From an uncultured delta proteobacterium (GTDB taxonomy: Bacteria > Myxococcota_A > Polyangia > Polyangiales > B10-G4), in the NCBI GenBank assembly GCA_963727445.1, contig CAVSGI010000006.1, positions 320,001 to 384,000 on the forward strand: a DNA stretch of 64,000 nucleotides, in the 5' to 3' direction. The notes beneath the pieces were generated by a model. That model had not been told where the DNA came from and ran no database searches. It worked only from the letters and a program-made list of their open reading frames with translations. Positions 1-19,382 of this stretch are shown one piece after another. A program made the position numbers and the translations under genes. Position 1 is the stretch's first letter. Every line of letters begins with the position of its first letter.

Positions 1-1003
1 GCTCCCGCTTGATCGACACGTCGTCCGCTTCGCCCACCAGGCGGGCGAGATCCGCGCCGGAGATGGACTTGCCGAGGGCGGCGATGATGCCCTCGCTCAT
101 GTTCGGCTGGTTCGTGAGCAGGCGGAAGAGCGGCTCGGCCGCACGGGGATCGCCCGTCCGCCCGAGGCCTGTCGCTGCCGACCGAATGACCTCGGTGTTC
201 CGCTCGTCCTCGGGACGCGCGAGCTCGTGGTCGACCAGGCGGGTCAGCGGGTCGATGGCCGCCGGGTCCGCGGATTCCGCGAGGGCCTGCGCCGTCAGCA
301 GTCGCACCGAGTCCTCTTCGTGGTTCAGCAGCTCGTCGGAGGCGAGACGCTCGGGGCCGAGCACCCGCGTGATGACCGCTGGATCCCAGTTGGGCATGTC
401 CTGCAGGCGGCCGGCGACGAACTGCTCGATGATCGCATCGGCCGCGTTCGACTCGCCGAGCACGGCGAGGGCCCACACGACCTGCGTGCGGTCGAGCTCG
501 TCGGTGTCGGGGAGGATGTCGAGGAGCTTCTGCCGCGCGGGGTCCGCCGTGGGCGAGCCCAGGTTCGCGAGCGCGATCGCCGCCTGGCGCCGCACCTCAC
601 CACGCTGGTCGAGCGCGGTGATGTACAGCGGTACGGCCGCCGCGTCTTCGAAGGCGTCGAGGTTCTGGATGATCCGAACGCGCACGCTCGGGTGATCGTC
701 CGCCTGGAACACGTTGCGGAGACACGTGAGCATCTCCTCCTGTGCGTCGATCTGACCGCAGCGCTCGACCTCCGCCATCATCTGGTCTTTGGCGATCGTG
801 GCGCGGTAACCGAACCACGCCATGATCCCCAACATGATGATGATCAGGACGCCCGCGATGCGGCCGGCCGTCGAGGTGCGCTTGCGCATCCCCTTGAGGG
901 CCTGCTCATCCCCCATCGGCACGGCTGCGAGCGGGTTGTCGTCTTCAAAAGCGCTGAGGTCGGTGGGCCCCTCGGCCGGTGCCTCGAAATCCTCGTCGGA
1001 CAT
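1..1003 (-). CDS. Membrane-anchored HEAT-repeat protein (3' end runs off the window)
   Basis: Manually translated from ATG 1003 with a GGAGG RBS: MSDEDFEAP...; TM segment IAGVLIIIMLGIMAWFGY; HEAT-like helices VRRQAAIALANLG, VRLLTAQALAE, VIRSAATGLGRTGDPRAAEPL; frame open to the window edge. Confidence 0.75.
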   Translation of the reverse strand, partial: MSDEDFEAPAEGPTDLSAFEDDNPLAAVPMGDEQALKGMRKRTSTAGRIAGVLIIIMLGIMAWFGYRATIAKDQMMAEVERCGQIDAQEEMLTCLRNVFQADDHPSVRVRIIQNLDAFEDAAAVPLYITALDQRGEVRRQAAIALANLGSPTADPARQKLLDILPDTDELDRTQVVWALAVLGESNAADAIIEQFVAGRLQDMPNWDPAVITRVLGPERLASDELLNHEEDSVRLLTAQALAESADPAAIDPLTRLVDHELARPEDERNTEVIRSAATGLGRTGDPRAAEPLFRLLTNQPNMSEGIIAALGKSISGADLARLVGEADDVSIKRE

Positions 1004-12588: not shown

Positions 12589-13788
12589 GTGGACCCCAAG
12601 AAGCTCCGCTCCCACGGTGACGTCGACCTCGCCGACAAGCTCTTGGCCGAGCGCTTGGTCATCGATCTCAACGAGCGTCTCGAGAAGGAGCAGGAGAAGA
12701 CGCCGCTGGGGATCAGGCGGCATCTGCTCGCGACGTCCATTCGAATCACCGAGCGGATGTTGCCCGACATCTTCGGGCTGGTCGCCGAGTGCCGTGAGCG
12801 ACTCGACATCGAGATCTCGCTCGAGGTCTACGTCTACGCGTCCACCTCCTTCAATGCGATGTGCATCAAGCCGGAGCAGGGGCGTCTCTTCATCCTGCTG
12901 AGCTCCAGCCTGCTCGAGGCCTTCGCGCCGGGGGAGCAGCGTTTCGTGATCGGCCACGAGCTCGGTCACCACCTCTTCGGTCATCTCGACATCCCCATCG
13001 GCTTTCTTCTGGGTGGCGACGAGCCTCCTCCGCCGGATATCGCACTTCGCCTCTTCGCCTGGTCGCGCTACGCCGAGATCAGCGCCGACCGGGCCGGGGC
13101 CTACTGCGCGAACGATCCCGACGCGGTGGCGCGCGCTCTCTTTCGCCTCGCCTCGGGGCTCACCATCAACCTCGACGACATCCGCATCGACGACTTCGCG
13201 GCCCAGGTCGACGACATGCAGGTGGAGGCGCAGGAGCCGGGGGCGAAGGCGCCGCAGGCGGATTGGTTCTCCACTCATCCCTTCAGTCCCCTGCGCCTCA
13301 AGGCCGTCCGGCACTTCTTCGATTCGGAGCTCTTCGTGCGCGACGAAATTCCGGTCAGCACCCTCGAGGCCCGGGTGCAGACCTTGATGGCGCTGATGGA
13401 GCCGAGCTATCTCGACGAGAAGAGCGACGCCGCCGAGACCGCGCGACGGCTCCTCTTCGCCGGAGCCATCGCGGTGGCCAACGTCTCCGGCGGGATCGAC
13501 GAGGCGGAGATCGCGGCCTTCGAGAAGTTCTTCGGCGAGCACTCCTTCACCGACAAGCTCGACATCGAGGCGATCGTGGCCTCTCTCGACCACCGCGTGA
13601 GCGCCGCGCTCGAACAGGTCTCCCATTCGCGCCGCATCCAGGTCTTGCGCGATCTCTGCGTGATCGCGCGCGCAGACGGACACGTGGATGATTCCGAGCG
13701 AATCCTCCTCGAGGATCTGGCGGGCCGCCTCGAAGTCCCGGCCGAGCTCGTCCACGCGACCCTTTGTGGGAACTGCGATCTGGACTGA
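12589..13788 (+). CDS. M48-family Zn metallopeptidase fused to a C-terminal TerB-like domain
   Basis: FVIGHELGH, EISADRAG, STHP; C-terminal IAVANVSGGIDEAE and IARADGHVDDSERILL. Confidence 0.8.
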   Translation: MDPKKLRSHGDVDLADKLLAERLVIDLNERLEKEQEKTPLGIRRHLLATSIRITERMLPDIFGLVAECRERLDIEISLEVYVYASTSFNAMCIKPEQGRLFILLSSSLLEAFAPGEQRFVIGHELGHHLFGHLDIPIGFLLGGDEPPPPDIALRLFAWSRYAEISADRAGAYCANDPDAVARALFRLASGLTINLDDIRIDDFAAQVDDMQVEAQEPGAKAPQADWFSTHPFSPLRLKAVRHFFDSELFVRDEIPVSTLEARVQTLMALMEPSYLDEKSDAAETARRLLFAGAIAVANVSGGIDEAEIAAFEKFFGEHSFTDKLDIEAIVASLDHRVSAALEQVSHSRRIQVLRDLCVIARADGHVDDSERILLEDLAGRLEVPAELVHATLCGNCDLD

Positions 13789-13837: not shown

Positions 13838-15169
13838 GTGGGAGCTCGACTCGCGGCCCTTCATCTGGTCGTCCTGAGCGTGGCCTGCGGCCGCATCGAC
13901 TATGGGCCGATCGAAGGGGGCCTAGGGACCGACGCCGCCACCATGGACGCCTCGGATGCGTCCGACGTGATGGACGCCGTGACAGCTGACGTCGGGACGG
14001 ACGCGATGGCCAGCGATGGCGGTGAGACCGACTCGGCGGTGGGGGATGCTTCGTCCTGTTCGGGGTGCTCTCTCGGTGCGGAGTGCCTACCAGGGACCGA
14101 CCCCTCCGCCTGTGGATCCGGCGGTGGCCCCTGCATGGTGTGCGCGCCGACCGCGATATGTGGCGAAGGGAGCTGCACGACTCCGGATCGGCATGATCTG
14201 CTGGGTCTGGGCTTCGGGTGGAGCTGCGCTGCCAGAGGGGGATCGGGGTACTGCTGGGGCGGTAACTTCTCGGGCGAGCTGGGCGACGGCACGACCACCA
14301 ATCGGCCGATGCCCGGCTTGGTGTCGGGGTTGACCGGCGTCGCGGGGGTCGCGGCCAGCGACACCGCCACCTGCGCCCTCACCACCGACGGGGCCGTCTC
14401 GTGCTGGGGCTCGCGGACCTACGGGAGTTTCCCCGTTTCCATCGCCGCCCTCACCGACGCCGTGTCCCTTTCCGGCGGCGAAACGCACTTCTGCGCACTT
14501 CGCACCGGCGGCGTCGTCTCGTGCTGGGGCGACAACTTCGACGGGCGCCTCGGTGATGGGACGACGACCAGCTCGCCCTCACCGGTGAACGTCGCTGGCT
14601 TGCCCGGCGCCGCCGACCAGGTCACCGCCGGCTTCAGCCACTCCTGTGCGCGTGTCGGCGGTCAGGTCTACTGCTGGGGCTCGAACACCTTTGGGCAGCT
14701 CGGCGACTCGACCATGGCGCCTTCCCTCACGCCGGTCACGGTCACGGGACTGGGGGATGCCGTCGACATCGCCGCGGGCTATCGTCACACCTGCGCCGCC
14801 CGCGCGTCGGGTCCCGTGGTCTGCTGGGGGGCCAACTTCGCGCCCTCGCCGGTCACCGTCCCCATGTCCGACGGTGTCACCCGGCTCCGGGCGGGTTACG
14901 ACTACACGTGCGGCATCCGCTCCGGGAGCGTGCTCTGTTGGGGCATCAACGGTCTCGGCCAGCTCGGCGACGGGACCACCACCGCCCGGAGCGAAGCGAC
15001 GACGGTCGCGGCCATCGGGGGGGTGCTCGAGGTGGAGACGGGCAACCAGCACACATGCGCGCGGACGAGCGCGCTGGAGGTGTGGTGCTGGGGGGACAAT
15101 TCCGGCGGGGAGCTCGGGGACGGCTCGACTGTGGAGAGCCACGTACCGGTCCTCGTGGCGTTCCCCTGA
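13838..15169 (+). CDS. RCC1-repeat (beta-propeller) lipoprotein
   Basis: LSVAC lipobox, DA-rich linker, repeated CWGxNxxGxLGDGT and HTCA motifs; alternative ATG at 13829. Confidence 0.88.
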   Translation: MGARLAALHLVVLSVACGRIDYGPIEGGLGTDAATMDASDASDVMDAVTADVGTDAMASDGGETDSAVGDASSCSGCSLGAECLPGTDPSACGSGGGPCMVCAPTAICGEGSCTTPDRHDLLGLGFGWSCAARGGSGYCWGGNFSGELGDGTTTNRPMPGLVSGLTGVAGVAASDTATCALTTDGAVSCWGSRTYGSFPVSIAALTDAVSLSGGETHFCALRTGGVVSCWGDNFDGRLGDGTTTSSPSPVNVAGLPGAADQVTAGFSHSCARVGGQVYCWGSNTFGQLGDSTMAPSLTPVTVTGLGDAVDIAAGYRHTCAARASGPVVCWGANFAPSPVTVPMSDGVTRLRAGYDYTCGIRSGSVLCWGINGLGQLGDGTTTARSEATTVAAIGGVLEVETGNQHTCARTSALEVWCWGDNSGGELGDGSTVESHVPVLVAFP

Positions 15170-15281
15170 GGCGTGTGAAAAACTCGTGCAGTTCCGGAGA
15201 GATGGTGCCTTTGAATGATGTCGCCGCCCGCGGCAACATTACCTGGCAAGATGCTGGGGTCGATGGCATATTCGGGGTGAT

Positions 15282-15488
15282 TTGGAACACGACGACGAAG
15301 ACCGCCGTGCGCTGGCTAGGCGCAAGTTCCTGAAAGCAGCGGTGTATTTGCCGCCGCTGGTGGTGAGCGCCGTGAGCGCGAGCAAGGCGCATGCGCAGGC
15401 GAGCTGCACGCCGGCGACGTGTGGTCCGGTGACTTGTCCACCGGTGACGACCTGCATGCCGGACACCACCTGCATGCCGGCTGGCTGA
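15282..15488 (+). CDS. Putative RiPP precursor peptide (twin-Arg-like leader, Cys/Thr/Pro-repeat core)
   Basis: 68 aa: ARRKFLK..YLPPLV..AHA then QASCTPATCGPVTCPPVTTCMPDTTCMPAG; stop lies 3 nt before the radical SAM gene. Confidence 0.75.
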   Translation: MEHDDEDRRALARRKFLKAAVYLPPLVVSAVSASKAHAQASCTPATCGPVTCPPVTTCMPDTTCMPAG

Positions 15489-15491
15489 GCC

Positions 15492-16598
15492 TTGAGCCAC
15501 GGGTTGATCTACGTCCCGCCCCGCTGGTTCGGGCGGAGACGAGGCGACCGCCTCGAGCTCTCGGAAGCGGTGCTGGGTCACGAGGTCGTCCTCGAAGGAC
15601 GCGCCGCAAAGAGCGTGGTCGATCGCGGTGAGCTCGACGAGGCCACCCGCTTCTTCGCCCGTCACGACCCGGCCCTCGCCGGCTTCGAGACCGACCTCGA
15701 GAGCTCGCCGCCGGTTCCCCTCACCCGCAAGACGCTGCTCAAGGGGACGGAGTGGGGCCGGCTCTTCGTCGAGCTCACCGGCCGCTGCAACGAGCGCTGC
15801 GTCCACTGCTATGCGAGCGCGGGGCCCGAGGTGGGCGAGGCCCTCGACTGGCCCACCATCGCTCGGGTGATCGACCAGGCGCACGGGATCGGCTTCGCCT
15901 CGATCCAGCTCACCGGCGGCGATCCCCTGGTCTCCGAGCACTGCCTCGCGGCGGCGGCGAGGGTGCGGGAGCGTGGCTTCCGCGAGCTCGAGATCTACAC
16001 CAATGGGCTCGCCCTTCGAGGCGCGCTCTACGAGGGCTTGCGCGATCTGGACGCGCACTTCGCCTTCTCGGTCTACTCCTCGGACCCCGCGGTGCACGAC
16101 GCCATCACCCAGGTGCCGGGCAGCCTGAAGCGCACCTCCGAGGCGATCCGACGCGCCGCGGCGGACGGGCTGACCTTGCGGGTGGGGATCATCGAGATGG
16201 CGGGAAACACCGCGGGCCTCGAGGCCACGCGGCGTTACGTCGAAGGGCTCGGGGTGCCGGAGGATCGCATCTCGTCGGACAGCTCGAGGGAAGTGGGCCG
16301 AGGCGACAGCTTCGCCGGCGAGTCCCAGGGCGCGCACGGGGGGCGGGGCGGTGTCGCTGCGGGCGTCCCGCGTTTCGTCGGACGCGCCGCCGTCGCTTAC
16401 GACGGCAGGGTCCACCCCTGCATCTTCAGCCGCGCAACCGTCCTCGGTGACGTGCGCGCGCAGTCGCTGAGCGAGATCCTCGAGGACGACACGCCGCTGT
16501 CGCCGCCGTCGAGGCGATTGGAAGTCTTTGGAGAGAGCGCGTCGATGGCCTGCTGGGAGTGTCGCCTCAGAAACCAGCTCCTCGGAGGTGCGACGTGA
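15492..16598 (+). CDS. Radical SAM protein with reduced SPASM/twitch-like C-terminus
   Basis: ELTGRCNERCVHCY (CxxxCxxC), LTGGDP, YTNG, HDAIT; C-terminal YDGRVHPC and CWEC. Confidence 0.92.
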   Translation: MSHGLIYVPPRWFGRRRGDRLELSEAVLGHEVVLEGRAAKSVVDRGELDEATRFFARHDPALAGFETDLESSPPVPLTRKTLLKGTEWGRLFVELTGRCNERCVHCYASAGPEVGEALDWPTIARVIDQAHGIGFASIQLTGGDPLVSEHCLAAAARVRERGFRELEIYTNGLALRGALYEGLRDLDAHFAFSVYSSDPAVHDAITQVPGSLKRTSEAIRRAAADGLTLRVGIIEMAGNTAGLEATRRYVEGLGVPEDRISSDSSREVGRGDSFAGESQGAHGGRGGVAAGVPRFVGRAAVAYDGRVHPCIFSRATVLGDVRAQSLSEILEDDTPLSPPSRRLEVFGESASMACWECRLRNQLLGGAT

Positions 16599-16873
16599 GC
16601 GCGAACCCGGTCCCGGTTCCCAAAGAGCTACCCCGCCACGAGATCGGCCCCGAGGGCGAGACCGTCCTCTTCGACGCGGACGGGAGCCAGCTCCTGGTGC
16701 TGAACGACATCGGCGCCGGCGTCTGGCTGCTCCTCGACGGAGAGCGCGGCCTCGCCGACATCGTCGACGAGATCCTCGAGGTGCACCCCGCGACGCGCGA
16801 CGCCGTGGAGCGTGACGTGCGCGCCTTCCTGGACGACCTGGTCGAGCGCGGTCTCGTCACCTGGCGCGACTGA
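16595..16873 (+). CDS. PqqD family / RiPP recognition element (RRE) protein
   Basis: GETVLFD...LNDIGAGVWLLLDGERGLADIVDEI...DVRAFLDDLVERGLV; GTG overlaps the rSAM stop; GGAGG RBS. Confidence 0.9.
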   Translation: MSANPVPVPKELPRHEIGPEGETVLFDADGSQLLVLNDIGAGVWLLLDGERGLADIVDEILEVHPATRDAVERDVRAFLDDLVERGLVTWRD

Positions 16874-17688
16874 TGATGAACGGGGTGCTGGTCGTCGCCG
16901 ACCTCGAGGTGCGCGTGTCGACGAGCGTCCCGGAGATGCTCCCACGCCTCGAAGCGATCTTCGGTGCGCCCTCCGAGCGGCCGGTGAGTCGCAGCATGTC
17001 GCTGGTGATTGGCCGGGAGCCCGAGGGGACGCTCGAGGTGACCTTCGATGGGGAGGAGACGATCGGCGAGCTCGCCGACGGCGACATCATCCCGACAATC
17101 GAAGGGCTCATCTACCAGGCGGTCACCGAGACGCCCGGGCGCGCCGCGCTCCACGCCGGGTGCGTGACGCGGGGCGGGCACACCTTGCTCTTCGTGGGGC
17201 CGTCGAACTCCGGGAAGAGCTCGCTCTGTCGCGCCGCGCTCGGCCGGGGCTGGCGGTACGCGAGCGATGACCTGACGCTCTTCGACGGCAGGCGTCTGTT
17301 GGGCCTCTCGCGGTCGATCGCCTTCGACGTGATCGACGTGGCGAAGGAGACGCCGGCGTGGGTCCGTGACGCCGACGTCTCGACCTACCAGACCTACGTG
17401 GGCGACAAGAACATCGCCGTGCCGCTCGTCTCGGTCGCTCCTACCCATCGCGTCGACGATTGGATCGACGGACAGGGCGCACACGTCGTGATCCCCGAGC
17501 GCGTTCAGACACGGACCTCCCTCGCGCCCCTGCCGGCGACCGACGCGCTGGCGGCGCTCCTCGCCGGCGCGCACCACCCCGATCCCCCGGACCTGGGCGT
17601 GCTGACACGGCGCGAGGCCTATCGTTTGTCGTGGGTCTCGCCCGACGAGGGGATCCACGCGATCGAGCGTGCTCTCGGCCTCGACTGA
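16873..17688 (+). CDS. HprK-related P-loop kinase
   Basis: ALHAGCV..GGHTLLFVGPSNSGKSS..GWRYASDD, the HPr-kinase-like His, Walker A and DD signature. Confidence 0.85.
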   Translation: MMNGVLVVADLEVRVSTSVPEMLPRLEAIFGAPSERPVSRSMSLVIGREPEGTLEVTFDGEETIGELADGDIIPTIEGLIYQAVTETPGRAALHAGCVTRGGHTLLFVGPSNSGKSSLCRAALGRGWRYASDDLTLFDGRRLLGLSRSIAFDVIDVAKETPAWVRDADVSTYQTYVGDKNIAVPLVSVAPTHRVDDWIDGQGAHVVIPERVQTRTSLAPLPATDALAALLAGAHHPDPPDLGVLTRREAYRLSWVSPDEGIHAIERALGLD

Positions 17689-18530
17689 TGCGTCGGCGTA
17701 TCGAAGACGCACTTTACCACTCGATGGCGCGCGGGACGCGACGTCTGGTCGCGTCTCCCAGAGCTGGCCGTGCGCTCGCGACCAGTGCCGCCGCCATCCT
17801 GGCGCACGCGCTGGATCCGCGTGAACGCAGCCGCATCGGCATCGGCCTCTACGACGTGAGCTACGAGCCGTCTTACGAGCGCGAGGATCTCTACGATTGG
17901 GAACAGCGATGGTTCAGCCGGGTGTTGCCGGCGCCGCCGGGACGGATCCTGGTGGGCGCTGCCGGGGGAGGTCGTGAAGTGGGCGCGCTCCTCGAGCGAG
18001 GCTACGAGGTCGCCGCCTTCGAGCCCGCGGACAAGCCGCGCGCCCACGGTCGCGCGCGTCACCGTGGCCGCGTCACCATCGAAGCCGCCGACTACGACGC
18101 CCTCACCGCCGCCGTGCGAGGCGAAACGGCGTCGCCCCTGGCAGACATCGCACGCGCCCGCTACGACGCCGTGCTCCTCGGATGGGGTAGCTTCACCCAC
18201 GTTGCCGGCGGTGCACGGCGCGCGGCGCTCCTCTCCGCCTGCGACCAGCTCACCGACGGCCCGATCCTGGCGAGCTTCTATTTCCGCGAGGGGGCCGAAG
18301 CCCCTGACTCCCGCTCGGACGCCGCGCGATGGGGACGACGCATCGGGCGCGTGATCGGCCGCGCGCGCCGCGTGGAGGGCATCACCGAGGAGTGGGATTT
18401 CTACCATTGGGGTGGGTTCGCCCATCGCCTCTCGGTCGAGGACGTGGAGTCGGCGGCTCGGGCCGCAGGCCGGAAGGTTCTCTGGAGCCTGACCGACGGC
18501 TTCCCCCACGCGACGTTCACCAAGCTGTGA
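17688..18530 (+). CDS. Class I SAM-dependent methyltransferase-like protein
   Basis: RILVGAAGGGREVGALLERGYEVAAFEP, YDAVLLGWGSFTH; ATG overlaps the kinase stop (TGATG). Confidence 0.75.
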   Translation: MRRRIEDALYHSMARGTRRLVASPRAGRALATSAAAILAHALDPRERSRIGIGLYDVSYEPSYEREDLYDWEQRWFSRVLPAPPGRILVGAAGGGREVGALLERGYEVAAFEPADKPRAHGRARHRGRVTIEAADYDALTAAVRGETASPLADIARARYDAVLLGWGSFTHVAGGARRAALLSACDQLTDGPILASFYFREGAEAPDSRSDAARWGRRIGRVIGRARRVEGITEEWDFYHWGGFAHRLSVEDVESAARAAGRKVLWSLTDGFPHATFTKL

Positions 18531-18590
18531 GCGCGAGTGCCCCGGCCCGTGGTGTGTCCGTGGCCCCACGTGACGTGGCATGATGAATAG

Positions 18591-19382
18591 ATGTCGCCTC
18601 GCTCGTGCACTTTCGGCGCGCTCCTCGTGATGCTCGCGTCGTGCACGGTGGACTCGTCGGCCATCCGTCCCGAGTCGGACGTCGCACCGGGCCATGATGT
18701 CGGCGTCGACACGAGCACACTCGATGCCATGCGCGACACCGCCGCGCGCGACACGACCGTCCCATCCCGACCGGATGGCGGTCCCGCGGACGCGACGACC
18801 CCGATGGATGGCGCGTCACCGGACGCCGCGCCCGACACCGGCACCGCCTCCGACACCAGCACCCCGCCGGATACCATCGCCCCGCCCGATGCCAGCATCC
18901 CGCTCAATTGCGGCGACCGCACCCTCGACCGCGGCGAGTCCTGCGATGATGGGAACAACACCAGCGGTGACGGCTGCAGCGCCGTCTGTGAGACCGAGTC
19001 TTCCTTCGACGACTGCCCCGGCGCACGCCTGGTCATCGGGCTCGGTAGGCAGAGCTATCGCGGGTCCAACGCCGGGGCTGCTTCGACCCAGACCTGCAGC
19101 AGTGGTCGGGGCCGCGGGCCGGACGCGGTCTACACCATCGCGCCCAACTACACGGGGCGACTCAACATCCGGGTGACCTCGCCCTTCGACGCGGTGTTGA
19201 TGACCAAGAGCGCCTGCCCGGGGGCGGTGCAGTTCTTCTGCGAGGACAGCTGGTATGGCGGGAGCACCGAGCAGGTCACGGGCGGCGTGAGCGCCGGGAC
19301 GGAGTACATGGTGATCGTCTCCGGCTACGGCTCGAGCGACACCGGCGACTTCGAGCTCGTCTTTCGGGGCTCGTCGCCCTGA
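18591..19382 (+). CDS. Lipoprotein with a myxobacterial Cys-rich repeat (DUF4215-type) and a pre-peptidase C-terminal-like domain
   Basis: MLASC lipobox; CGDRTLDRGESCDDGNNTSGDGCSAVC; GPDAVY..FDAVL..YMVIVSGY. Confidence 0.75.
   Translation: MSPRSCTFGALLVMLASCTVDSSAIRPESDVAPGHDVGVDTSTLDAMRDTAARDTTVPSRPDGGPADATTPMDGASPDAAPDTGTASDTSTPPDTIAPPDASIPLNCGDRTLDRGESCDDGNNTSGDGCSAVCETESSFDDCPGARLVIGLGRQSYRGSNAGAASTQTCSSGRGRGPDAVYTIAPNYTGRLNIRVTSPFDAVLMTKSACPGAVQFFCEDSWYGGSTEQVTGGVSAGTEYMVIVSGYGSSDTGDFELVFRGSSP

Follow-up and report, generated by a model that had tools for sequence, protein, structure and literature searches.

RiPP pathways normally need a leader peptidase and an exporter of their own. 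The locus described here raises the question of how a modified peptide could be released and secreted where neither is encoded nearby. It lies in the window, that is, the whole stretch of 64,000 nucleotides from an uncultured delta proteobacterium that was analysed. A preliminary description of one small open reading frame had proposed that a single leader serves both recognition by the maturation enzymes and Tat export with cleavage, which would explain the missing genes. The reading favoured here, with a rough probability of 0.55, is that the frame encodes the precursor of an uncharacterised RiPP family, and that its leader is both docked by an RRE and used as a twin-arginine signal. All in silico tests that were run on the dual-purpose leader came out consistent with it.

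The first matter is whether the small gene is real.

15282..15488, + strand: gene for the precursor peptide, 68 aa, with TTG (read as M) as its start and TGA as its stop at 15486-15488

The gene is unannotated. Translation of 15282-15488 gives exactly the peptide of the preliminary description, with ARRKFLK, YLPPLV and the hydrophobic stretch running to AHA all in place. That description had made its proposal depend on conservation of the frame, and the frame is conserved: of 14 related loci, 12 have a homologue directly upstream of the radical-SAM gene and one more has it inside the cassette, 13 in all. A search of a collection of 5.8 billion proteins returned 103 relatives, mostly from Myxococcota MAGs, which form a large unnamed family. 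None of the 103 relatives listed exceeds 58% identity to the window peptide, which is therefore itself absent from among them; family counts below refer to 104 members, the window peptide with its 103 relatives. The leader is under strong purifying selection: its pN/pS is 0.00-0.12 across five species of one genus, and L020 and L021 differ in it by 12 synonymous and 0 non-synonymous changes. It is also more conserved than the core, as is usual for RiPPs. Conservation of the locus, the 103 relatives and the leader pN/pS put the frame far beyond chance, and 15282-15488 is a real gene of 68 codons. No paralogue of the peptide better than E 0.05 was found in its own genome, a consensus scan of 15000-18800 for promoters and terminators gave 0 sites, and no sequencing run was listed for 15150-18550.

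The precursor heads a translationally coupled operon whose genes form a conserved cassette.

15492..16598, + strand: radical-SAM enzyme, with an RRE-like N-domain, a CxxxCxxC core and a C-terminal domain with 3 conserved Cys (Twitch-like or partial SPASM)
16559..16873, + strand: discrete PqqD-family RRE, 104 aa, matching PF05402 with 62 bits (cut-off 23.4) and sharing its first 40 nt with the end of the radical-SAM gene
16873..17688, + strand: HprK/PEPCK-fold P-loop kinase-like protein, 271 aa, weak TIGR04352 and ScmC matches below cut-off
17688..18530, + strand: methyltransferase-like protein (putative function), 280 aa, ATG overlapping the kinase stop (TGATG)

The order is thus precursor, radical-SAM enzyme, PqqD-type RRE, HprK/PEPCK-fold kinase and methyltransferase-like protein, with a gap of 3 nt after the precursor and overlaps between the downstream genes. 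A tblastn search for the peptide, as the preliminary description had advised, finds it in 10 of 12 larger loci; the radical-SAM enzyme is found in 12 of these, PqqD in 10, the kinase-like protein in 11 and the methyltransferase-like protein in 6.

The radical-SAM enzyme matches PF04055 and PF13186 (28 bits, cut-off 21.5), and its alignment holds only 3 conserved Cys beyond the radical-SAM cluster. With its CxxxCxxC motif, auxiliary-cluster domain and RRE, it has the architecture of the sactipeptide and ranthipeptide maturases SkfB, StsB, AlbA and CteB. The structural model (pLDDT 83) is closest to SkfB 6efn (Foldseek E 3.7e-11; by VIA Z 24.2, rmsd 5.2, 277 residues aligned, model range 10..364), which is the only structural match spanning the N-domain. 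Enzymes of other radical-SAM chemistries are nearly equal, namely SuiB (Z 21.5), BlsE (21.2), viperin (20.6) and anSME (19.1), with anSME placed behind SkfB by Foldseek as well as by VIA. SkfB and the window enzyme share their domain plan, in which an RRE-like N-domain precedes the radical-SAM core and a C-terminal domain with a single cluster follows it, although identity between the two is 17-20%. The best NCBIfam match is the sactisynthase StsB, at 64.3 bits against a cut-off of 625; AlbA gives 38.3/850 and SkfB 36.9/300. These scores lie far under the family cut-offs, and membership in the StsB and SkfB families was rejected. Thioether formation is the most likely chemistry as judged from the fold likeness of the model, and from that only. 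StsBC resembles the cassette in pairing a radical-SAM enzyme with a discrete RRE, but SkfB and StsB substrates, as presented in the part of PMC10288494 drawn on here, have neither a signal peptide nor CxP repeats, unlike the precursor. An N-terminal YVPP in the radical-SAM enzyme was considered as a mimic of the leader and rejected, since it is not conserved in 12 homologues.

The kinase-like protein has an invariant G-x-S-x-x-G-K-S P-loop, and Y129, S131 and R147 stand out in the alignment of locus copies. Its model (pLDDT 78) resembles PEPCK 1oen (Foldseek E 1.2e-6) and HprK/P 1kkl (3.7e-3), whereas a word-indexed homologue search with the protein matched only itself. The methyltransferase assignment is a weak one drawn from profile matches: two homologues match Methyltransf_11/25/23 and TPMT weakly, the window copy matches none of these, and the protein has a weak daptide_MTase match (E 0.0015). 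Radical-SAM/SPASM enzymes, PqqD and/or HprK-like proteins are also combined in the SynChlorMet, GeoRSP and HprK-related kinase A systems, to which the window proteins bear weak matches. SynChlorMet membership was rejected on the scores (ScmC 26.3/125, ScmD 43.6/100, ScmE 36.4/400, ScmF 50.1/400), and HprK_rel_A reaches 41.8 against a cut-off of 200. We know of no experimental characterisation of these three systems or of CefA, which is taken up below.

The docking half of the proposal concerns a short motif in the leader.

15345..15362, + strand: Y22-L-P-P25-L-V27, candidate RRE-docking motif of the [Y/W]xxPx[L/V/I/F/A] type, within the hydrophobic region; YxxPx[LVIFA] in 103/104 members

Motifs of the form [Y/W]xxPx[L/V/I/F/A] are what discrete RREs bind in lasso and LPP (linear polyphosphorylated peptide) systems (PMC13381572), and lasso leaders carry YxxPxL at positions -17 to -12 (PMC10368454). 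In the window leader, YLPPLV occupies residues 22-27, which is -17 to -12 from the predicted cut; the Tyr is at -17 from a cut after the first AxA in 53 of the 70 members with AxA, the window peptide included. The lasso-type motif, its register and a discrete RRE are therefore all found at this locus. The nearest solved relatives of the PqqD profile are the lasso RRE TbiB1 5v1u (E 1.7e-10), 9x8z_B, named as a PqqD family protein (1.5e-8), and TfuB1. The complex prediction that the preliminary description had called for, PqqD with leader residues 1-41, gave 0.49 against 0.02 for the best of three controls and is graded weak: the mark it passes is also passed by 116 of 157 solved complexes and by 2 of 215 mismatches, but with scores of 0.60 or less only 18 of the 157 pass it, along with both mismatches. 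Repeated runs (0.49, 0.42, 0.50) agreed in at least 91% of contacts with a partner pLDDT of at least 62. Because RRE-leader complexes have already been solved, the pass may reflect likeness to them; the prediction, which came with no list of contacts, supports docking weakly.

The export half concerns the residues around this motif.

15318..15335, + strand: twin-arginine motif R13-R14-K-F-L-K18, RR then two hydrophobic residues in 104/104 members
15387..15395, + strand: predicted signal peptidase I site A36-H37-A38 (alternative A38-Q-A40), preceded by K35

The Tat consensus is a (S/T)-R-R-x-F-L-K-type motif near the N-terminus. The window leader has ARRKFLK at residues 12-18, and RR is invariant in the family, always in the form RR-x-h-h. 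RRKFLK is followed by 16 uncharged residues, A19-S34 (best 14-residue Kyte-Doolittle mean 1.69), and then by K35-A36-H37-A38; the length cited for the uncharged stretch is 15-17 residues. AHAQA contains two overlapping AxA sites, AHA/Q and AQA/S. The AxA site that had been claimed is thus present in the window, where it has a second, overlapping candidate, and in 70 of 104 members (with a basic residue at most 3 aa before it in 57 of the 70), while in the other 34 the repeats begin directly after the hydrophobic stretch.

An alternative is that the leader only docks enzymes. RR and the hydrophobic stretch would then serve recognition by the RRE, the radical-SAM enzyme or the kinase, or membrane association; likeness to a Tat signal would be incidental, and removal and export would be left to unlinked functions. 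The window peptide does not match TIGR01409, TIGR02811 or PF10518 even at E<=10, and its relatives match them weakly (TIGR02811 in 34/68, TIGR01409 in 10/68, PF10518 in 6/68), a gap that lowers the Tat claim only slightly, since such short models are insensitive. The region before RR is acidic, with a median net charge of -3 over 15 residues in the family, and an acidic stretch at this place is unusual for signal peptides. The Tyr of the docking motif lies 9 residues after the first Arg in 102 of 104 members, so that RR and YxxP keep a fixed register, as if they were one unit. These points, together with the 34 members lacking AxA, suit a leader that only docks, as does the presence of dedicated peptidases and exporters in the related LPP and lasso systems (PMC13381572). 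On the other side, the invariant RR, the uncharged stretch, the basic residue and the A-x-A before Q make up every part of a Tat signal, and in the descriptions available from PMC13381572 and PMC10368454 the YxxP leaders of lasso and LPP systems have none of these additions. TatC (PF00902) is above cut-off in the own genome and in 10 of 10 other cassette genomes tested (11 in total), which is a weak test because Tat is widespread.

The genes around the cassette bear on the same choice. Among 42 flanking ORFs of 8 loci there is no gene of a signal-peptidase family and no ABC/MsbA gene; one imelysin occurs, at a single locus. Neither a macrolactam cyclase nor a B2 leader protease was found by Pfam in 16 window ORFs and the same 42 flanking ORFs, and neither a SipW-like peptidase nor an MsbA-like exporter in the window ORFs or the 8 related loci. 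No gene that flanks the cassette in the window is found again in the 12 related loci. The claimed absence of a peptidase and a transporter thus holds for the cassette as a conserved unit, which argues against a leader that only docks, and we consider that alternative unlikely. The proposal of a dual leader is partly borne out: RR, YxxP and the lack of a local peptidase and exporter support it, whereas the lack of a Tat-model match for the window peptide and the members lacking AxA do not. The operon also has two RRE-like domains, the discrete PqqD and the N-domain fused to the radical-SAM enzyme, and the second, fused one counts against a dual leader.

Among characterised systems, LPPs, phosphorylated lasso peptides, bufferins and the SkfB/StsB sactisynthases come nearest. 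LPPs of Bacillota and the phosphorylated lasso peptides (paeninodin, Bsf) resemble the cassette in their discrete PqqD-type RRE, [Y/W]xxPx[L/V/I/F/A] leader and HprK-like kinase (PMC13381572, PMC10368454). [quoted passage not shown] The family shares with these pathways a conserved Ser early in the core, and also a PF14907 nucleotidyltransferase: of the 8 related loci scanned, 5 have one next to the cassette, but none lies near the window's own. Of the LPP core set, the RRE and the kinase-like gene are found here, but the set is incomplete: the cassette is without the SipW-like peptidase and MsbA-like exporter, and also without lasso cyclase and B2 protease. To what it shares with these pathways it adds, in another phylum, a radical-SAM enzyme, a core of CxP repeats and a leader with RR, hydrophobic stretch and AxA. 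The preliminary description did not mention the genes for the kinase and the methyltransferase, by which the system is connected with the phosphorylated lasso and LPP pathways.

The core is built of short Cys-containing units.

15396..15485, + strand: core peptide, beginning with Q39-A-S41 and continuing as five C-x-P-x-x(x) units

In the window it reads QA-SCTP-ATCGP-VTCPP-VTTCMP-DTTCMP-AG. It had been described as [S/T]-C-x-P repeats, and all five Cys do have S or T before them and x-P after them. In the family, 492 of 515 Cys stand in C-x-P units, but S or T precedes the Cys in only 225 of the 492 (46%). The conserved unit is therefore C-x-P-x-x(x), and [S/T]-C is a feature of the window rather than a family rule. 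The Cys period is mostly 5 (spacing 5 in 256, 6 in 84 and 7 in 27 of 390 intervals), and the repeat number, whose variation the preliminary description had also asked about, runs from 0 to 8, with a mode of 5 in 59 of 104 members. The position after Cys is most often Met (138/492), and positions +3 and +4 vary, so that the repeats offer no conserved acceptor residue. S41 is at least 90% conserved; with a cut at the first AxA, the Ser of the first S-C is at core position 3 in 38 of 70 members. Three other assignments of the core were rejected. Anaerobic sulfatase-maturing enzymes act on a C/S-x-P/A-x-R motif, and Arg at +4 from the Cys occurs in only 8 of 492 CxP units, so this is not a sulfatase-type formylglycine substrate. 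A lipoprotein signal in the members ending in Q(A)GC fails because the residues before the Cys do not fit the lipobox; this Cys is that of the first CxP unit. CefA (Cys-every-fifth peptide) shares the period of five, but its model gives 17.5/30 in 1 of 68 members, and NF038107 gives 17.6/600 on the window radical-SAM enzyme.

Based on these features, the pathway under the dual-leader reading may be as follows. In the cytoplasm, the discrete PqqD-type RRE would bind the leader at its Y-x-x-P-x-[I/V] strand, possibly with assistance from the RRE-like domain at the N-terminus of the radical-SAM enzyme. The SkfB-like radical-SAM enzyme would act on the cysteines of C-x-P-x-x, Cys-to-carbon thioether cross-links being the likeliest outcome. 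The HprK-like kinase would phosphorylate the conserved Ser just before the first Cys, and the methyltransferase-like protein may provide further decoration. After release by the RRE, the leader would serve as a twin-arginine signal that takes the compact peptide, already cross-linked, out through the general Tat machinery, and signal peptidase I would cut at AHA/Q (or AQA/S) to give a product of 28-30 residues. Since Tat and signal peptidase I would do export and cleavage in this proposal, no dedicated leader peptidase or exporter would be needed.

A second alternative is that the leader does no more than direct export, by Tat or Sec, that the enzymes recognise mainly the core, and that YxxP is kept for a cause other than an RRE. 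Its model would be the bufferins, copper-binding peptides modified by an MNIO enzyme and the one studied RiPP with a signal peptide (PMC11626156). As in the present family, their precursors start with a general-secretion signal, no dedicated exporter or peptidase is involved and the core is Cys-rich. They differ in their Sec-type signal, in their MNIO/DUF2063 enzyme and in a signal peptide that is dispensable for modification; no YxxP is reported for them in the portion of PMC11626156 used here. Because the bufferin signal peptide is dispensable, a dual role is not required of a leader of this kind. What is recognised could be the repeated CxP core itself, and the weak grade of the PqqD-leader prediction also fits this alternative. 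Against it stands first the retention of YxxPx[LVIFA] throughout the family, and its retention beyond it: a profile of the leader only finds 147 representative proteins at E<=0.001, 131 of them not seen before, and 127 of the 131 keep RR with aromatic-xxP. The cores of the 127 are wholly different, 72 with at least 3 CxP units, 23 otherwise Cys-rich and 32 with few or no Cys. Moreover, the PqqD protein is nearest to RREs known to bind YxxP. The motif does not appear to be a generic Tat feature either, since aromatic-x-x-P occurs in only 1 of 19 Tat-like N-termini of the own genome, in a sample taken with a crude filter that also excluded the window's own peptide. We regard a plain export signal as quite improbable. 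The weakest alternative, an exported Cys/Met/Pro-rich peptide left unmodified by its neighbours, acting as a soft-metal binder or disulfide peptide while the radical-SAM enzyme has another substrate, draws on Cys and Met being thiophilic metal ligands and on the frequent Met in CxP, and is made very improbable by the precursor's place beside the radical-SAM and RRE genes, by the RRE motif in its leader and by a leader more conserved than its core.

The dual-leader reading would provide a minimal route for making and secreting modified peptides, in which an RRE reads the leader first and Tat and signal peptidase I read it afterwards. The range of Tat would then include cargo that is very small and cross-linked after translation. 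To our knowledge, 28-30 residues is far below the size of known native Tat substrates, which counts against the reading; if the reading is right, we know of no smaller native Tat cargo. RREs would also be joined in function to the chaperones of Tat signals. TorD, DmsD and NapD are cytoplasmic proteins that bind the twin-arginine signal and delay export until the cargo has matured. This is the role proposed for the RRE, although the folds are unrelated and their cargoes are large cofactor enzymes, and we know of no link between them and RiPPs. PqqD would accordingly hold the signal until radical-SAM cross-linking and phosphorylation are done. That this is the first class of modified peptides to use Tat, with a Tat signal that is also the RRE leader, PqqD as a proofreading chaperone and a leader portable among many unrelated cores, is a tentative proposal to which we give less than even odds. 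In a literature search, the combination of a Tat signal and an RRE-docking motif in one leader was found in no paper, and no natural Tat-signal RiPP was among the matches listed. The main texts of PMC12452194 and PMC10288494 do not contain "twin-arginine", the former also not "Tat", the latter neither "signal peptide" nor "Myxococc". From the sequences of its relatives the leader appears to be a portable module; as such it could act as a secretion-plus-modification tag in peptide engineering. Its profile, with 147 representative proteins and many kinds of core, offers a handle for genome mining, and the relatives point to a large unexplored set of products, mostly from uncultured Myxococcota.

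A minor observation concerns the DNA of the core.

15441..15476, + strand: 18-nt unit duplicated in tandem and coding for the last two CMP units (15441-15458 and 15459-15476, 83% identity)

A duplication with an 18-nt period had been claimed for this part of the gene and is confirmed by these units; within it and across its end, the exact 13-mer ACCTGCATGCCGG occurs twice, at 15450-15462 and 15468-15480.

The peptide gene heads five consecutive genes on the forward strand, in a region of about 69% G+C where GC3 singles out the coding frames:

15282–15488, + strand: peptide gene; its translation is the 68-residue precursor
15492–16598, + strand: radical-SAM enzyme (PF04055 and PF13186), 3-nt gap after the peptide gene
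16559–16873, + strand: PqqD (PF05402, 62 bits), 40-nt overlap with the radical-SAM gene
16873–17688, + strand: P-loop (kinase-like) protein, 271 aa, following PqqD
17688–18530, + strand: methyltransferase-like protein, 280 aa; its ATG overlaps the stop codon of the P-loop gene

The precursor starts with TTG, a few bases downstream of a GGGG run, and its translation (+ strand) is organized as follows:

Peptide start: acidic N-terminus
Residues 12–18: A-R-R-K-F-L-K
A19–S34: uncharged stretch, including Y22-L-P-P25-L-V27
K35-A-H-A38: next to the uncharged stretch, on its C-terminal side
After K35-A-H-A38: core QASCTPATCGPVTCPPVTTCMPDTTCMPAG

The preliminary description of leader motifs, five Cys units and an 18-nt period is correct as written: its 13-mer lies at 15450–15462 and 15468–15480, and the 18-nt units 15441–15458 and 15459–15476 are 83% identical.

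None of the window's flanking genes (RCC1-like, M48-TerB peptidase, DUF924 and VWA upstream; Cys-rich acidic repeat protein and GCS2 downstream) recurs in the related loci. The M48-family peptidase, fused to a TerB domain (12589–13788, + strand), lies 1.5 kb upstream of the precursor with an RCC1-repeat gene between; it is not conserved in the 12 related loci, so a connection with the cassette is unlikely. Directly 3' of the operon (18591–19382, + strand) is an acidic Ser/Thr/Pro-rich protein that carries the Cys-rich acidic repeat of myxobacteria (TIGR02232 at 42 bits, DUF4215 weakly) and was not found in the related loci.

The peptide gene is real and conserved. Of 401 genomes sampled across the phylum, 15 (counting the own genome) carry a radical-SAM homologue at E ≤ 1e-25, and 13 of the 14 other loci encode a homologous peptide (10 by a strict pattern, one, L030, by a looser one, and two in the divergent loci described below); at locus L028 no peptide homologue was seen. 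In the 12 larger loci, a set that leaves out two short contigs, tblastn finds the radical-SAM enzyme in all 12, the kinase-like protein in 11, the peptide and PqqD in 10 each, and the methyltransferase-like protein in six. A profile built from 11 peptides retrieves 103 proteins from a collection of 5.8 billion, every one unnamed or 'hypothetical'; the named sources are MAGs of Myxococcales, Polyangiales, Kofleriaceae, Myxococcota or 'Deltaproteobacteria'. Their identity to the window peptide is 58% at most, so the window's own ORF is not in that list. Within one genus, pN/pS is 0.00–0.12 over a 32-codon leader segment, and between the leaders of loci L020 and L021 there are 12 synonymous changes but no non-synonymous one.

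Two loci depart from the common arrangement. In genome G265 (L024/L042), Trp replaces the otherwise invariant leader Tyr, the core holds two Cys only and an in-frame TAA interrupts the radical-SAM match, which suggests a variant copy or one in decay. In genome G041 (L025/L036, 49% G+C), the precursor (L036:11149–11457) lies 2 kb downstream, past an oppositely oriented methyltransferase-like gene, and imelysin, HTTM-domain and TonB-dependent receptor genes precede the cassette.

Counted over 104 members (the 103 profile matches and the window peptide), RR followed by two hydrophobic residues and Y-x-x-P are universal; the first Arg precedes the Tyr by exactly nine residues in 102. C-x-P units hold 492 of the 515 Cys located after RR, at 0–8 units per peptide (mode 5, in 59 of 104). 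Over 390 intervals, unit spacing is 5 in 256, 6 in 84 and 7 in 27; Met (138) and Asn (110) predominate at x, and positions +3/+4 vary, with Arg at +4 only eight times. The proposed [S/T]-C-x-P rule holds for all five window Cys but is local to the window, since family-wide the residue before Cys is Ser in 124, Gly in 104 and Thr in 101 of 492 units. AxA follows the hydrophobic stretch in 70 members, most commonly as AHA|Q (46; the bar marks the predicted cut). The 34 members without AxA (the YVPP..IG..SL[S/T]Q(A)G-C group) start their repeats immediately. Eight relatives (P0053, P0054, P0061, P0063, P0064, P0071, P0073 and P0075) carry some 22 extra residues C-terminal to the repeats; in seven of them these align with positions 1–23 of Pfam Peptidase_S74 (chaperone of endosialidase), scoring 13–19 bits where the cut-off is 22. 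Several lie on short contigs, so their genes may be cut off.

The best-supported account of these features is a RiPP pathway of docking, Cys modification, phosphorylation, and Tat export with trimming. The RRE, a leader-binding domain of PqqD fold, would dock on YxxPx[I/V] of the leader. An SkfB-like enzyme would modify the CxP cysteines, with thioethers the most likely chemistry, and by analogy the kinase would phosphorylate a conserved Ser. The product would then be exported and trimmed by Tat and signal peptidase I.

It had been proposed that one leader serves both maturase recognition and Tat export. The textbook elements of a Tat signal are the RR consensus, an uncharged stretch of moderate hydrophobicity, a c-region with a basic 'Sec-avoidance' residue, and AxA. 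All of them are present in the window peptide and in most relatives, a basic residue standing at most three residues ahead of AxA in 57 of 70. The own genome and 10 of 10 other cassette genomes tested encode TatC, a necessary but weak condition for export. A leader used for docking only is the strongest rival. The acidic N-region (family median net charge −3) and the very small size of the cargo speak against Tat. Curated models match members weakly (TIGR02811 34 of 68, TIGR01409 10 of 68, PF10518 6 of 68), and none of the three matches the window's own peptide.

The leader element bound by discrete RREs, both in lasso peptides and in the recently reported linear polyphosphorylated peptides (LPPs), is [Y/W]xxPx[L/V/I/F/A] (PMC13381572), and Y-x-x-P-x-[LVIFA] is found in 103 of 104 members (Ile 62, Val 39). 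In lasso leaders YxxPxL is placed at −17 to −12 (PMC10368454), the same register as here relative to the predicted AHA| cut; Tyr stands at −17 from the first AxA| in 53 of 70. The solved structures nearest the PqqD profile are TbiB1 (E 1.7e-10), 9x8z_B ('PqqD family protein', 1.5e-8), PqqD proper (4e-8) and TfuB1 (4.4e-7). Asp86, invariant in the PqqD alignment, aligns with their E-R/E-D Asp and may be the Tyr-binding Asp of the RRE described for LPPs (PMC13381572). A predicted complex of PqqD with leader residues 1–41 scores 0.49 (runs 0.49, 0.42 and 0.50) against 0.02 for the best of three controls, with at least 91% contact agreement between runs and partner pLDDT of at least 62. Of 157 solved complexes, 116 reach the mark, as do 2 of 215 mismatches; at ≤0.60 only 18 of the 157 do, along with both mismatches. 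RRE–leader complexes are already solved, so the pass may reflect likeness. The prediction lends weak support to docking.

Two further rivals are a leader used for export only and, least likely, an unmodified exported peptide. Among 19 Tat-like N-termini from the own genome, a crude sample whose filter also dropped the window's own peptide, aromatic-x-x-P occurs in just one (Trp, 853-aa ORF). Searching 1.84 billion representatives with a leader-only profile (11 sequences, 42 positions) gives 147 proteins at E ≤ 0.001, and 127 of the 131 not seen before retain RR and aromatic-xxP-x-hydrophobic. The cores of these 127 comprise 72 with at least three CxP units, 23 otherwise Cys-rich and 32 with few or no Cys. 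Some relatives of 120–150 aa have 11–15 Cys outside CxP units; others have Gly/Asn-rich or Cys-free tails. Retention of the same RR and YxxP leader across unrelated cores (P0116, P0149, P0156, P0159, P0160, P0182, P0203, P0230, P0236 and others) argues that the leader itself is the recognised element.

With RR and YxxP only nine residues apart, RRE and Tat-receptor binding would probably be mutually exclusive, which suggests a hand-over of the kind known from chaperones that bind Tat signals. A dedicated exporter is needed by another radical-SAM cross-linked peptide, the gamma subunit of quinohemoprotein amine dehydrogenase; Tat use here would therefore be logical. Among the literature matches listed, none describes a RiPP precursor with a natural Tat-type leader; bufferins are called 'rare examples' of RiPPs bearing a Sec signal peptide (PMC11626156). 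The system is best classed as a putative radical-SAM RiPP that depends on an RRE and bears a leader for general secretion; it belongs to no named family.

SkfB, a thioether-forming RiPP maturase, is the top match of the radical-SAM model (pLDDT 83) in both comparisons (Foldseek E 3.7e-11; VIA Z 24.2, rmsd 5.2, 277 aligned). It is the sole match covering residues 10–364 and alone aligns with the RRE-like N-domain (residues 1–71, four strands then three helices), nearly all others beginning at residues 70–89. This N-domain (15492–15720, residues 1–75) is additional to the discrete PqqD, giving the system two candidate leader-binding domains. SuiB, BlsE, viperins, PqqE, MoaA, anSME and CteB follow at Z 19–21.5, so fold alone does not fix the chemistry. 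Across 13 homologues, conservation of Cys outside CxxxCxxC is limited to three residues (P-C-I-F and C-x-x-C), a pattern that fits one auxiliary cluster. NCBIfam matches are all far under cut-offs, the best being StsB (64 vs 625 bits), which with the discrete RRE StsC is reported to install three sactionine links (PMC10288494).

The kinase-like model (pLDDT 78) matches PEPCK (E 1.2e-6, TMq 0.54) and HprK/P (E 3.7e-3), and the protein has an invariant G-x-S-x-x-G-K-S, a Y-x-S-D/E motif and an Arg. HprK-like kinases are described as phosphorylating lasso and LPP precursors, LppK, the LPP kinase, at core Ser3 (PMC13381572); here the Ser of the first S-C is core position 3 in 38 of 70. Weak matches of two homologues (TPMT included) and a GxGxG-like motif hint that the 280-aa protein is methyltransferase-like.

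The absence of a dedicated peptidase and exporter, noted earlier, extends to eight related loci, where none of 42 flanking ORFs belongs to the signal-peptidase, cysteine-protease or ABC/MsbA families; one locus has one imelysin. PF14907, an 'uncharacterised nucleotidyltransferase' that clusters for phosphorylated lasso peptides and LPPs have as their accessory enzyme, adjoins the cassette in five of these eight:

L031:11252–12184
L032:11027–11887
L038:5716–6720
L039:4027–4953
L040:9791–10690

The window cassette, in contrast, is without it, and the own genome's two copies lie on other contigs, C16 and C9.
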